38,623 bases of DNA from a virus (Duplodnaviria; Caudoviricetes): IMG/VR virus record IMGVR_UViG_3300001726_000074, positions 1 through 38,623 of that record. The stretch is one strand, 5' to 3'. A model generated the notes under the pieces. It ran no database searches and was not told the DNA's origin. It worked only from the letters and a program-made list of their open reading frames with translations. This document shows positions 25,650 to 29,832 of this stretch, one piece after another. Position 1 is the stretch's first letter; every line of letters begins with the position of its first letter. The translations under genes were made by a program, and so were the position numbers.

Positions 25650-26356
25650 CCCTGCTCTCCCATCAGCGCGTCAACCGCCGCCCTGTCCATTTTTCCCGGT
25701 GCTGATTGCTTGTGAGGGGATTGTTTTTCGATTGCCCGCTCGTTCGACCGCTTGAGCCAGTTGCTCGCGGCAAAGAACCATTTCCCGTCCTTCGGCGGGT
25801 TATCGACGTAGTAGGCATCCGCTGCCGTGAGTTCTGGAATCAGATCAACCTTTGGAAAGTTCCGCCGCCAAGCGTCAGCTTGGGAATGGTCGATCCTGAT
25901 GATTTTACCCTCGAAGGCATAATCTTTGGATTTTTTGCCAGCCCCTACTTCCTTCCTTTCCTCTCCTATACCTTCCTCTCCCTTACTATCCGCCGACGAG
26001 TATTCGTCGAACGTTCGACGATCAGGGTTAGAAGGAGGCGGTATTTTTGATTGCTGTGGACGATCAATCTTCTGATTGTGCCATCCATTTATTTGTAGAT
26101 ATTCTTTATTATCAACAACATAAAGCGTAACAAGACCATTCGACGATAATTCGTCGATCCATCCACGAATGTTCGTCTCGTCAATTTGGTCTGCCGGAAA
26201 AATCTTTGCCTTGATTTGTTTGTCCGATGCGCGCAAGCGACCGGCGTCATCAGCAAAATTCCACAACCCAATAAACATCAGACGAGCGTTCGGCGAACAC
26301 TCCATGACATCTTCGTCAGTCCAAAACTCAGGTTTAATCGTCCTGATACGCGCCAT
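25646..26356 (-). CDS. Replication initiator protein (O-like)
   Basis: MARIRTIKPEFW N-terminus, GLWNFADDAGR; upstream of the helicase; contains iterons. Confidence 0.85.
   Translation of the reverse strand: MARIRTIKPEFWTDEDVMECSPNARLMFIGLWNFADDAGRLRASDKQIKAKIFPADQIDETNIRGWIDELSSNGLVTLYVVDNKEYLQINGWHNQKIDRPQQSKIPPPSNPDRRTFDEYSSADSKGEEGIGEERKEVGAGKKSKDYAFEGKIIRIDHSQADAWRRNFPKVDLIPELTAADAYYVDNPPKDGKWFFAASNWLKRSNERAIEKQSPHKQSAPGKMDRAAVDALMGEQG
25994..26180. repeat. Putative replication origin: palindromic iterons inside the initiator gene
   Basis: CGACGAGTATTCGTCG (25994-26009), TCGACGATAATTCGTCGA (26140-26157), GTCGAACGTTCGAC and ACGAATGTTCGT around an AT-rich tract. Confidence 0.6.
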
Positions 26357-26654
26357 TTAACTTCTCCATAAACCGCGCGATTGGCGCGCTGATATGTTCG
26401 GGCTTCTGAATCTTCACGCATCCGCGCACACACAGCCGGTTGGTGCAGTGACCACCGGCCTGGAAGCAGTCCCGACCAAGGCTCTTGCCGTTATCGATGC
26501 AGCGCATCGCCTCCAAGCATCGACCACGGCGCACACAGGTCGCGCCCTTTACTCTGGCAGGGCACACCCAACCGGGCGGCTTGCATATCTCAGCAAGGGC
26601 AAAGCATGCCTCTGTGTAGCTATCGTGGCAGTCCTTGGCGGTGTCGTGGGTCAC
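26334..26654 (-). CDS. Cys-rich hypothetical protein
   Basis: Multiple Cys clusters; probable GTG start overlapping the upstream stop. Confidence 0.55.
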   Translation of the reverse strand: MTHDTAKDCHDSYTEACFALAEICKPPGWVCPARVKGATCVRRGRCLEAMRCIDNGKSLGRDCFQAGGHCTNRLCVRGCVKIQKPEHISAPIARFMEKLNGAYQDD

Positions 26655-26839
26655 AGCAGCTTCTCCAATGCCATCACGCGAGTGGTTGCGTCTCGGAGTA
26701 CCTTCTCGCACTTAGAGCGCGCCTGCGTGCTGTTGATGAGGACAGCGCGGTCGTAAGCTGCCTTTGCCTGGGATTGGGCCTTGATGGCACCGTGCAGCGC
26801 TATACGAGCCTGTACTGAGGGGTGGAGTAGGTCAGTCAT
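26651..26839 (-). CDS. Small helical hypothetical protein
   Basis: 62 aa, coupled on both sides by 4-nt overlaps. Confidence 0.6.
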   Translation of the reverse strand: MTDLLHPSVQARIALHGAIKAQSQAKAAYDRAVLINSTQARSKCEKVLRDATTRVMALEKLL

Positions 26840-27285
26840 AGACCACCTGCCCGCAAGCGCTTCATTTTATCAGCATGGTCGATTGCCAAGAGGATGATAG
26901 CTGGTGTCTCAAACTGATCACCACACTGCATCACCTTCGTTTGCGCCAACAGATCGGCGGAAATAATGCGCCAATCAGAGTTCGGTATTTTGACGCGCAA
27001 ATGATGGATGTATAGCAGTCTATCAACGACATCATCGCCGGAGCGTTTCCGCATCCAATCCTCAAATTCAACAGGACGGCTTCCAAGATATGCGTGGCAT
27101 CCGTAGCAGTGCGCGACTGCATTCTGGTGGTGCCAGCGGGTCGATGTAGAGCCGCGACCATAAAAATGGGAACAGTCCAGCGCGCCTGTGTTGTGACCGT
27201 GATACTTGCCGCAGCGCTCACACGTCCAGTTGGCCCGCATGCGAACCAACCTTGAAAAATGCTTGTCTGCTGCGACTATCTTCAT
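26836..27285 (-). CDS. ninG: NinG/Rap-like HNH-type endonuclease
   Basis: ADKHFSRLVRMR, CERCG, DCSHF...STRW...NAVAHCYGCH motifs; ATG overlaps the tas stop (ATGA). Confidence 0.8.
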   Translation of the reverse strand: MKIVAADKHFSRLVRMRANWTCERCGKYHGHNTGALDCSHFYGRGSTSTRWHHQNAVAHCYGCHAYLGSRPVEFEDWMRKRSGDDVVDRLLYIHHLRVKIPNSDWRIISADLLAQTKVMQCGDQFETPAIILLAIDHADKMKRLRAGGL

Positions 27286-28100
27286 GCCGCCACCTGTAAG
27301 TTGGAACCAGCCAAGGGCCGAGTGGCTTGCACTGATAGGGTGGGCTGGTTCCACGCGACCCAAAGGTCACGAACGAGAGCCTTGGTCATAACGCGCATCG
27401 CATCATTGTGAGAGTGGCCTTTGGACCAGTCTGGATGCGTTACAGCGGTATGCTCCCTACGCGCGGTGTAGACCACGCCGTAGCGGCTTTTTTTCTTGTG
27501 TTGGATCATGGGGGCGGTGACGTTCCCAAACACACGCCCTAGACGACTTGGCGCATATCCCAGTGCCGTCCATTCATCCTTGGACAGACCGCCTTCCCGT
27601 CGCCATTGGCTTGCCGCCTTCCCGTTCAAGGGCGCAAGACCTAAGCGCTTCCAGACGTGGCGATGGTTTGGGTAGTCAGACAGGCCGCCGCCATTCTCGC
27701 CAAGACCGACTTCTGCAATCAGGCAAGCAAGGCCCTTCTCTCCCAAACCCGGAACGTCCTTCATGAATTGATAGACAGGGAGTGTCCGAACGAGCGGGAT
27801 AATTTCCTGCTTGTCGATTTCCTTCATGGTGTCAACCAAGGGCTTTTGAAGCATAAGCAGGGGAACAATGAACAGCGCGGCTTGGCTTTCCTGTACACCG
27901 GACTCGCCTTTGCGAACCCGTGCCGCAAGGGTCTGGGCTTTCTTTGCCTGCGCCTCTCCCTCTAGGTCAGGGAAAAACTGCCGACACGTCGCAGCGATGC
28001 GATTGTCCAGAGCAACCTTTTCCTTTTCCCAGACACAGCGACGACGCCAGTGAAACACCAGTTCGTGCAATGTCAGATCAATGTCACCGTCTCTTGGCAT
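27282..28100 (-). CDS. IS110-related Nop-domain RNA-guided DNA-binding protein without a nuclease domain (TIGR-associated, TasA-like)
   Basis: Coiled coil (KVALDNRI), then VPGLGEKGLACLIAEVG, WKRLGLAP, Y..Y..RR and HSHNDAMRVMTKALVRDLW; no RuvC/DEDD or HNH N-domain; no IS110 catalytic SG after GLAP; AAGGAG RBS; adjacent guide array. Confidence 0.85.
   Translation of the reverse strand: MPRDGDIDLTLHELVFHWRRRCVWEKEKVALDNRIAATCRQFFPDLEGEAQAKKAQTLAARVRKGESGVQESQAALFIVPLLMLQKPLVDTMKEIDKQEIIPLVRTLPVYQFMKDVPGLGEKGLACLIAEVGLGENGGGLSDYPNHRHVWKRLGLAPLNGKAASQWRREGGLSKDEWTALGYAPSRLGRVFGNVTAPMIQHKKKSRYGVVYTARREHTAVTHPDWSKGHSHNDAMRVMTKALVRDLWVAWNQPTLSVQATRPLAGSNLQVAA
27302..27353 (-). ncRNA. Fourth TIGR-like guide unit embedded in the tas 3' coding end
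   Basis: Minus strand TGGAACCA-GCCCA-ccctatcag-TGCAAGCCA-ctcggccct-TGGC-TGGTTCCA; same geometry as the array. Confidence 0.8.
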
Positions 28101-28116
28101 CGTCTTCTCCTTTTAT

Positions 28117-28305
28117 CGCGGCCAATGGGGATGTGGCTTTCATTTCTGCGATGGGCCGCGCCGCCGTAGCGGAATGTTTGGGGTGCCAAATACTGGATGG
28201 CTTTCACTCCCAAGCTGGGCACCCCATCCCTTTCGGGAAATTCGACCTGCCATTCTTAGGCTGGCTTTCAAACATTTTCTGGGCAGGTCAGCACATTTCG
28301 GTGCT
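28117..28305 (-). repeat. TIGR-like stem-loop guide RNA array, 3 units, 64-nt period
   Basis: Units at 28244-28289, 28179-28226 and 28117-28160, each stem-GCCCA-N9-TGAAAGCCA-N9-TGGC-stem with unique spacers and covarying stems. Confidence 0.9.
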
Positions 28306-28819
28306 ATTCGGTTTCAACCTTCTGTTTAAGTTCTTCCAACTGAGCCTCGTTGTAGCGAGTGCCCACTGTGTCATTGTCCTGCATGCCGCCTGCGATCAGA
28401 CCCAACCACTTCTCACGGATCGAATAGGTCTTGGCATAGACGCGGTAATAATCTGCCGCCCCAAGAACGTCGGATTTCGTGGCTGATTGAAGTTCGCGCC
28501 CAGTGTTGGGCAGGCGGCTTTCCAGCAATTGGAAGCGCTTAACAGCCCCTTCATGCACACGTTGCAGGTTCATCTTTTGCTTGGATGGTTCGGCAGATGT
28601 TGCGCCGCTGGGCCATGCTGGATCTCTCCTGTCATTGCCGAAACACCTCCGCACAAGGGCAGAAGCGATGCTCGGGAGATGGGTGTTGATCAATTCATCC
28701 ATAAGGGATTGTTCTGCCTTCAACCGCGCGATAAGGGCATCGCGGGCGACTTCAATAGAATCCGATCCATCGGCGCACTCTCTCGCTGCTTTCAACAATG
28801 CTGATTGTCTATCTGACAT
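28304..28819 (-). CDS. Hypothetical helical protein immediately upstream of the guide array (candidate accessory factor)
   Basis: 171 aa, AGGAG RBS, stop codon abuts the first hairpin of the array. Confidence 0.75.
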   Translation of the reverse strand: MSDRQSALLKAARECADGSDSIEVARDALIARLKAEQSLMDELINTHLPSIASALVRRCFGNDRRDPAWPSGATSAEPSKQKMNLQRVHEGAVKRFQLLESRLPNTGRELQSATKSDVLGAADYYRVYAKTYSIREKWLGLIAGGMQDNDTVGTRYNEAQLEELKQKVETE

Positions 28820-28830
28820 ATCAAACTCCT

Positions 28831-28995
28831 AAAAAAGCGCCGGGGACATTTGCGCCCCCGGCAGTTTCAGGGAGGAAACGCCCGATAGGGCCTCGGTACA
28901 GGCCGGAGCCTGAATAGGTGGGAGCGCGCATCTGGCAGGATGACGGGACCGCGCTCCCGACGCGCGGAGAACAGGGAATTACCCGCGCGTGTCTC
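28831..28995 (-). ncRNA. Structured intergenic RNA with an anti-SD CCUCCC hairpin, ending in an intrinsic terminator
   Basis: GC-rich hairpins, GTTTCCTCCCTGAAAC (28864-28879), then GCCGGGG...CCCCGGC-GC-TTTTTT. Confidence 0.55.
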
Positions 28996-28996
28996 A

Positions 28997-29485
28997 TTAG
29001 ATTTTCCCTTCGCAAACGAGGGTGACGCAGCCTTGCTTTGCCGCCTCGCGTACATGCTTGATTTCATCCATAAGGGACCGGCACGACTTCTCTATGTCGT
29101 CCAGTTCATACCGGGTGATCGTCGCGCCACCCGGCCCTTCTGGATGCAATGCGCTTTTGACCGCATCGACCACGCGACCAAGGGCAGCGGGCAGATCCAT
29201 GATTTCATCATGCAAGGGACCAACAGCGGGAGGCGGCGCAATCATCGCCCGCGTCATCATCATCGCCGCAAGTGGCGTGTCGCCCTTAACCTGATAATAC
29301 AGCCGATCTAGGACAGCGGCCTGCGATACGGTCGGCAGATGCTTCCGATCAGGGTCCATCCAGGCGTAAACCGATGAGGCGCTGACCTCTACATGGGCCG
29401 CGATGTATTCGACCCTCACAACGTCGGCAATCCGCGTCACGACGCTGGCGAAAGTCTCAGGAGGCCGGGGCTTGATCGTTGTCAT
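28997..29485 (-). CDS. CII-like regulatory protein
   Basis: N-terminal HTH (IAAHVEVSASSVYAWMDPD), helical C-terminus (ITRYELDDIEK); position after cro. Confidence 0.65.
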   Translation of the reverse strand: MTTIKPRPPETFASVVTRIADVVRVEYIAAHVEVSASSVYAWMDPDRKHLPTVSQAAVLDRLYYQVKGDTPLAAMMMTRAMIAPPPAVGPLHDEIMDLPAALGRVVDAVKSALHPEGPGGATITRYELDDIEKSCRSLMDEIKHVREAAKQGCVTLVCEGKI

Positions 29486-29588
29486 CGTGTAAATTTCCCT
29501 ATTCGTTGTACTGGCGTTGCCTTTTGATCGGCGTCATCTTGAGGCCATGAAAAGACCTGTTCACATATCGACGCCACTGAAGGCTGTG

Positions 29589-29780
29589 CTACGCCGCCTC
29601 TTGCGCATCCAATCGCGCAAGTTGCTCAAACGTAAAGTCAGAGGACCTAACGATGATCGCCCAATGCTTTGAGGGAACGCCGTTCTGTCGCCACTTGCGA
29701 ACAGCGGATGCTTTAATGCCGCATAACGCAGCCGCAGCATCGACGCCACCAAGGGCCATGATTATTGTGTTTGCATCCAT
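29589..29780 (-). CDS. cro: Cro-like repressor
   Basis: IIMALGGVDAAAALCGIKASAVRKWRQNGVP HTH; divergent from cI. Confidence 0.8.
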   Translation of the reverse strand: MDANTIIMALGGVDAAAALCGIKASAVRKWRQNGVPSKHWAIIVRSSDFTFEQLARLDAQEAA

Positions 29781-29782
29781 AA

Positions 29783-29832
29783 ATGCGAATTTAATGGAAT
29801 TTGTTTCGCGTTTCAAGCAAAATAATTCGCGC
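29783..29832. promoter_or_regulatory. OR operators and PR promoter
   Basis: Three GCGAA(T/A)-type sites; minus strand TTGAAA-N17-TAAATT ending 7 nt before the cro ATG. Confidence 0.7.

Follow-up and report, generated by a model that had tools for sequence, protein, structure and literature searches.

A stem-loop guide unit in the last codons of a phage tas gene and its recurrent register among TasA relatives

Described TIGR-Tas systems and the phage locus

Guide units located inside tas genes, including at their 3′ end, have already been reported for BlTasA and MbTasA (Xu et al., bioRxiv 10.64898/2026.09.09.750476), so the basic phenomenon of in-gene guides is already in print. As far as the text of that preprint goes, the intragenic BlTasA tigRNA was recovered by small-RNA sequencing, transcription is repressed by TasA, a link of tigRNA maturation to Tas translation was proposed, and the extended C-terminal region of TasA was put forward as a possible alternative processing module. 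The maturation of stem-loop tigRNAs is left open there, as is whether the intragenic ones derive from the tas message or from promoters of their own. The string ‘autoregulat’ does not occur in the text of the preprint, and a literature search on intragenic tigRNA and TIGR autoregulation returned no other paper on the point. The intragenic units described by Xu et al. typically map to disordered regions, and their tested case lies in the wedge loop. In contrast, in the stretch of DNA analysed here (the window, a whole virus record of 38.6 kb), the 5′ arm of the unit begins at the last conserved residue of the helix, with the register fixed at +7, and the helix codons also carry a covarying linker hairpin. 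Neither this register nor the helix hairpin was found in the text of Xu et al., whose Fig. 1d or supplement may already show a 3′ peak; relative to that text, the constancy of the register and the double use of the codons of a structured helix are new.

Among the other characterised systems, the stem-loop TIGR of PlTasA (Faure et al., PMC12045711; Guan et al., bioRxiv 10.64898/2026.08.11.744272) resembles the window in its TasA protein and its stem-loop units, each of which is processed to one hairpin RNA. The PlTasA array comprises 13 units in three sub-arrays, and its description, in the text available, mentions neither a unit inside the coding sequence nor abutting linker hairpins. The dual-repeat TIGR-TasR/TasH systems (PDB 9MTY, 9W03) share the Nop-domain fold, the C/D boxes and the dual 9-nt spacers, whereas they differ in having a nuclease domain and edge repeats in place of stems; additionally, their C-terminal Tyr/His processing loop sits where the window Tas has the guide read-through. 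The IS110/IS1111 transposases, which use a bridge RNA, have a related RNA-binding C-terminal fold, but the window Tas model is without their N-terminal RuvC-like domain and the RNA units of the window have TIGR anatomy.

The window has a lambdoid organisation, with genes for a repressor carrying HTH and S24 domains, a cII-like protein, a replication initiator and a DnaB-like helicase, as well as terminase, portal and head genes. The replication initiator gene contains five imperfect 28-nt direct repeats (25994-26307), partly self-complementary, which are likely origin iterons. The TIGR-Tas locus lies in the early operon on the minus strand, with a ninG/Rap-like gene on one side and a 171-aa gene without known family on the other, and consists of the following features:

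28244-28305, minus strand: upstream unit 1, with its core at 28251-28282 and an abutting hairpin at 28290-28305
28179-28238, minus strand: upstream unit 2, with its core at 28187-28218 and an abutting hairpin
28117-28172, minus strand: upstream unit 3, with its core at 28123-28154 and an abutting hairpin
27282-28100, minus strand: tas gene, 272 aa, coiled coil and Nop domain without nuclease domain, TasA type
27302-27353, minus strand: unit 4, the fourth stem-loop TIGR unit, in frame over codons W250-N267 of ORF 27282-28100
27283-27295, minus strand: Shine-Dalgarno-like AGGTGG and start codon of ninG, 6 nt after the unit 4 stem
26836-27285, minus strand: ninG/Rap-like gene, 149 aa (PF05766, E 0.0016, below the cut-off; phrog_5034, E 2e-21)

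Unit 3 ends 16 nt 5′ of the tas ATG and leaves the tas ribosome-binding site AGGAG free. The 171-aa gene (28304-28819, minus strand) lies directly upstream of the array, and distant homologues of it (E 1e-5 to 1e-9) were found upstream of tas in L058, L059, L060, L072, L073, L089, L054 and their duplicates, which makes it a possible Tas-associated gene. Further upstream, an Rfam suhB/mmgR match (28824-28898, minus strand; 41.2 bits against a gathering score of 41) matches the position of a terminator-like hairpin (28838-28863) in the stretch that separates the cII-like gene from the gene preceding the array, and antitermination may be needed for transcription into the TIGR array. In run X18, contigs of a related phage match both flanks of the locus (26018-27050 and 28638-29500), with none across 27051-28637; the tas module may therefore vary between strains, low depth in X18 being the other possible explanation.

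The window Tas is a nuclease-free stem-loop TasA. Its AlphaFold model (mean pLDDT 90) is almost wholly helical, without any strand of at least 3 residues, and ends in a final helix of residues 227-251. A search of its homologue profile against the PDB retrieved TaTasR (9MTY, E 5e-10) and TasH (E 0.007) and no others, and TasR/TasH chains occupied ranks 1-10 in Foldseek (E 2e-4 to 4e-3, TM about 0.55). No Pfam match was obtained for the protein, and no RuvC or HNH domain was seen. PHROG matches labelled ‘transposase’ and weak Foldseek matches to IS110-type transposases were also recorded; in the model, residues 4-40 form one long helix without beta sheet in place of the N-terminal RuvC-like catalytic domain of IS110. 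The four units all show stem-loop TasA anatomy (C/D boxes, two 9-nt spacers and a stem of at least 5 bp), their stem sequences all differ from one another, unlike the edge repeats of dual-repeat TIGR, and a small hairpin lies directly 5′ of each. A box pattern with a loop of 2-6 nt matched four times on both strands of the window, always at the TIGR locus, and a looser box-only pattern (loop 2-12, stem not demanded) matched six times, against 0.89 in 200 shuffles (maximum 4). The Rfam search returned no match at the TIGR units. No sigma-70-like promoter was found near unit 4; the two sites retrieved in that search, near 29760-29816, were at chance level.

Anatomy of unit 4 and its register among homologous loci

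The initial annotation had described a complete guide unit on the last tas codons, and its box pattern, spacers and stem were indeed found there, in frame, with the following parts:

27354-27371, minus strand: linker hairpin of 7 bp, abutting unit 4 and formed by codons R244-A249 (R-D-L-W-V-A) in the last conserved helix
27353-27344, minus strand: 5′ arm
27343-27341, minus strand: first box C, CCA
27332-27340, minus strand: spacer A, 9 nt
27325-27323, minus strand: second box C, CCA
27314-27322, minus strand: spacer B, 9 nt
27313-27312, minus strand: second box D, TG
27311-27302, minus strand: 3′ arm

Between spacer A and the second box C stand a box D (TG) and the loop CAAG, which differs from the AAAG of the three upstream units by the single change that had been noted. 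The stem had been given as 8 bp; a stem is present, but its perfect length is 10 bp, the longest of the four units, with no deviation in any of the 10 box bases or 10 stem pairs. The preceding mini-hairpin is also as described, abutting the unit 4 stem in the manner of the hairpins of units 1-3. Box C begins 7 nt past the W250 codon, and unit 4 agrees with the TIGRFinder criteria. A contig of DNA run X16 spans 27273-27454 with zero differences from the window, and unit 4 is therefore not an assembly error. The hairpin and unit 4 together fold better than expected (z = -4.0; 0 of 200 shuffles as good), and a slightly wider stretch does so less markedly (z = -2.1; 6 of 200 shuffles as good). When the CUU motif of TasA stem bases was looked for, the trinucleotide CTT was seen 1 nt 3′ of the unit 4 stem but not after units 1-3.

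For the comparison, a search found 134 relatives of the protein; of the 120 listed, 118 were aligned and two short ones left out. The 195 loci comprised 3 from a single-protein scan, all 34 genomic matches, and the best 80 each of the viral (114) and metagenomic (128) matches; 192 of the 195 could be aligned at the W250 column and fell into 136 groups on clustering at 90% identity, from which 133 representative loci with Trp at this column and at least 80 nt downstream were retained. A strict unit was defined by at most one deviation in boxes or spacer length and a stem of at least 6 bp. In 14 of the 133 loci such a unit begins at an offset of +7 nt from the last conserved Trp codon, against 0.13 expected under synonymous recoding, a treatment that the window's own unit 4 survives in 1.6% of trials. 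A further 17 units are spread over ten other offsets between +5 and +28, none of which has more than 4, and no strict unit was found from -150 to +4 of the Trp codon in these loci. The 14 loci belong to 14 separate 70% clusters, with pairwise core identities of 29-67%. As a non-circular counterpart to this pattern-based choice, loci were selected by the stem alone, which gave 24 of 133 against 0.79 expected; at least 8 of 10 box bases were then found in register in 17 of these 24, versus none of the remaining 109, and 3 of the 24 are units at neighbouring offsets.

The feature is far from universal: over the initial 30 nt of their tails, 95 of the 133 loci contain neither a unit nor a Trp-arm stem, and the feature is therefore not needed for Tas function. 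A further unit lies 70-107 nt past the Trp codon in 6 of the 14 loci, so that the +7 unit often heads a 3′ sub-array, whereas the window's unit stands alone. In a quick tree, 11 of the 14 loci fall into one 41-row group (SH-aLRT 91) together with the window's Tas; 9 changes account for the +7 label, compared with 11.7 for shuffled labels (35 of 500 shuffles reached as low a value), and strongly supported branches force at least 2. The +7 unit may thus be an old feature with losses or the result of repeated gains at a favourable site. Strict units were found inside 30 of the 58 tails of at least 20 aa versus 3 of the 75 shorter ones, long tails having more room by construction. Several other arrangements were observed, including 3-6 consecutive guide units read in frame by tas in L137, L138, L094, L015 and L032 (tails of 84-138 aa), a second recurring register at +17 after the Trp codon in one well-supported clade (L063, L065, L070, L188), and, in L160, a first tail unit at offset +6 whose box D forms the tas stop codon. 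Three of the 14 loci (L001, L017, L080) have the CTT mentioned above no more than 5 nt away from the stem.

Comparison of the sequences gives strong support to the view that selection acts here on the RNA and not on the protein. Across the 14 loci, the spacers are on average only 25% and 28% identical; the pattern that had been named as refuting the guide reading, conservation of amino acids instead of nucleotide boxes, was looked for and was not observed. Box C falls on an NCC codon (Ala in 9, Ser in 3, otherwise Pro or Thr) and box D on an NTG codon (Leu, Val or Met), tail residues 4-16 are not conserved, tail lengths range from 10 to 137 aa, and in L017 the tas stop codon lies within spacer B. 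In 11 ungapped loci with a 4-nt loop (9 strict, 2 degenerate), which were selected for the stem and compared with kinship ignored, both partners vary at 7 of the 10 stem pairs, and pairing is kept in 99% of cells, against 31-51% in slid controls. The tail after the final helix has no secondary structure in the AlphaFold model (pLDDT 61-67). Together with the retention of RNA boxes over amino acids, this bears out the earlier proposal that the protein tail is a by-product of reading through a guide.

The codons of the last helix are also constrained. A hairpin of at least 6 bp on the D-L-W codons is present in 10 of the 14 +7 loci (2.2 expected under recoding), compared with 11 of the 102 loci without a tail unit (4.4 expected). 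In all 19 loci with the motif x-D-L-W-S, the wobble base of the x codon pairs with that of the Ser codon (CG 13, GC 3, TA 1, AT 1, TG 1); 18 of these are Watson-Crick pairs of four types (p 5e-5 by shuffling, kinship ignored), while 39 control positions at equal spacing gave 0-11 Watson-Crick pairs of 19. Trp-arm stems are found in 14 of these 19 loci versus 10 of the other 114. The window's own linker hairpin has the 4-nt-loop register R-D-L-W-V, in which GTC is the codon in 5 of 9 loci, and survives synonymous recoding in 12% of trials (p 0.12); the hairpin evidence is weaker in this register, the strong covariation coming from the x-D-L-W-S loci. Abutting hairpins precede 9 of the 20 other perfect units of the 14 loci (1 in shuffles), compared with 47 of 436 units overall (20 in shuffles), and the linker is therefore typical of the window's group.

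Targets, regulation and rival explanations

As described in PMC12045711, in the text available, spacers A and B pair with opposite strands, and the cleaved ends carry 3′ overhangs; the target layout given in the initial annotation would fit this geometry. The target search that it called for came back empty for unit 4 in the window (no match at up to 3 mismatches), in the provirus records G001 and G002 (none at up to 2 mismatches) and in the viral contigs and 222 loci (no exact match). A trimmed 16-base pattern (gap 0-2) gave 8 matches in unrelated sequences of 30-68% GC, which were taken as chance, the best ungapped matches agreeing at 17 of 18 bases. Targets of units 1-3 were matched 1, 1 and 17 times, and these matches were rejected; none of the matched sequences has a protein in common with the window, and at least 15 of the 17 unit 3 matches are homologous AT-rich stretches with a 1-nt gap and hence one event. 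When self-targets of unit 4 were sought in the window in both geometries, the best matches carried 4 mismatches, and a unit 3 self-target at 15 of 18 proved to be its own template. The tail guides of the homologues gave 5 near matches against all loci, about the number expected by chance on a rough estimate. Metatranscriptome contigs (RNA runs X19 and X20) cover only 27582-27821 and 29010-29272.

Downstream of the unit, the ninG start overlaps the tas stop (ATGA), an arrangement through which ninG may be translationally coupled to tas. The general link to ninG that had been suggested was not supported: among the 192 loci searched, a ninG homologue occurs only in L001, L002 and L116, all copies of the window's phage, and the next genes of the other scanned loci are unrelated. 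In 6 of the 14 +7 loci, more array units follow instead of a gene. The unit 4 stem was kept in 4 of 5 folded stretches at a probability of 0.96-1.0, falling to 0.08 in the fifth; most of the ninG ribosome-binding site and start is predicted to be paired, in folds that vary with the stretch taken. Pairing of the 5′ arm of unit 4 with ninG codons was seen in 1 of the 5 stretches and was rejected. An alternative fold of 27275-27380 (minus strand), weak and present in 3 of the 5, extends the stem and pairs the 5′ arm of the linker hairpin with the ninG ribosome-binding site.

Taken together, unit 4 is conserved as an RNA structure in distant relatives and is probably excised from the tas message to guide a nuclease-free Tas dimer, which would repress an 18-bp DNA site. 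By analogy with the characterised systems, the early operon transcript would fold into hairpin-plus-unit modules, Tas would bind the C/D boxes, a host RNase would trim at the stem base, and the complex would bind DNA consisting of spacer A followed by the reverse complement of spacer B. As to its origin, the first member of a 3′ sub-array may have moved up to the end of the Nop domain, its 5′ arm taking over the Trp codon and the next two codons, with a sole 3′ unit left here. A 5′ cut at the Trp codon would deprive the processed message of its stop codon and, in the window's phage, of ninG coupling, while ninG would keep its ribosome-binding site within a 16-nt leader. Because such a cut costs the message its stop codon, feedback on Tas is a possible consequence, and the autoregulation of tas by unit 4 that had been proposed is geometrically possible; that such feedback is physiologically real seems to us doubtful.

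Whether this feedback is itself selected, with binding or processing of the unit by Tas destroying or stalling the tas message, uncoupling ninG and matching Tas to the guide supply, can be weighed against the comparative data. Proteins of 29-67% identity share a register anchored at the last conserved residue, which places the 5′ cut always before the stop codon, and the hairpin is maintained within helix codons. The overlap is also avoidable, since L048 and L061 place the unit just beyond a short tail, and the predicted pairing of the ninG start would make ninG depend on ribosomes finishing tas. On the other hand, the message could be translated before being processed, the overlap is absent in most homologues, the next gene varies and is ninG only in the window's phage, the next ORF overlaps the tas stop in only 3 of the 14 +7 loci, and the predicted folds depend on the stretch chosen. 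A selected switch of this kind is therefore put forward tentatively, as an unlikely rather than a favoured outcome. Equally tentative is its extension to a widespread set of phage TasA proteins with built-in self-limitation, in which guide and processing hairpin are fixed on the last Nop helix codons and Tas-dependent excision of the guide would cut the tas message at the final conserved Trp, leaving a non-stop message.

Two further explanations would deprive the unit of a role as a guide. It could be a fossil in the tail, decayed or silenced by translating ribosomes that block folding and loading, as suggested by relatives that keep the Trp-arm stem with degenerate boxes (L013, L055, L082, L145), by the missing target of unit 4 and by RNA contigs that do not reach it; but the window's boxes and its stem, the longest of the four, are perfect, and the intragenic BlTasA unit is expressed (bioRxiv 10.64898/2026.09.09.750476, in the text available), which leaves decay or silence improbable. 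Far less credible still is that the unit is a chance by-product of protein coding and the tail a functional peptide, for instance a protease tag or a loop that processes guides. In 19 of 133 loci, conserved codons lying 50 nt upstream of the Trp codon do produce a half-unit pattern, and the window tail ends in Ala-Ala, AA or AAx ending 46 of the 103 tails of at least 8 aa; such an end presumably resembles ClpXP tags. However, 14 units were seen where 0.13 were expected, residues 4-16 of the tail are unconserved, and the codons for Ala-Ala coincide here with the ninG ribosome-binding site and start overlap. The 22-aa tail of the window Tas contains neither Tyr nor His, and none of the 14 +7 tails has both within its first 30 residues. 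Stem-only selection, recoding, hairpin pairing and stem covariation largely refute this explanation. Probable excision and use of unit 4 as a guide thus remains the preferred reading.

Implications for stem-loop TasA

The window and its 13 relatives offer a clean test of tigRNA maturation, the unit boundary being placed on a fixed codon. The linker hairpin can be broken and restored by synonymous changes alone, which makes the feedback idea easy to test. These findings suggest that translation of a guide often accounts for a long C-terminal tail in stem-loop TasA proteins, a point relevant to the idea of the extended region as an alternative processing module; if the self-limiting arrangement were true, the extended C-terminal region of TasA would be mostly guide read-through and not a processing module.
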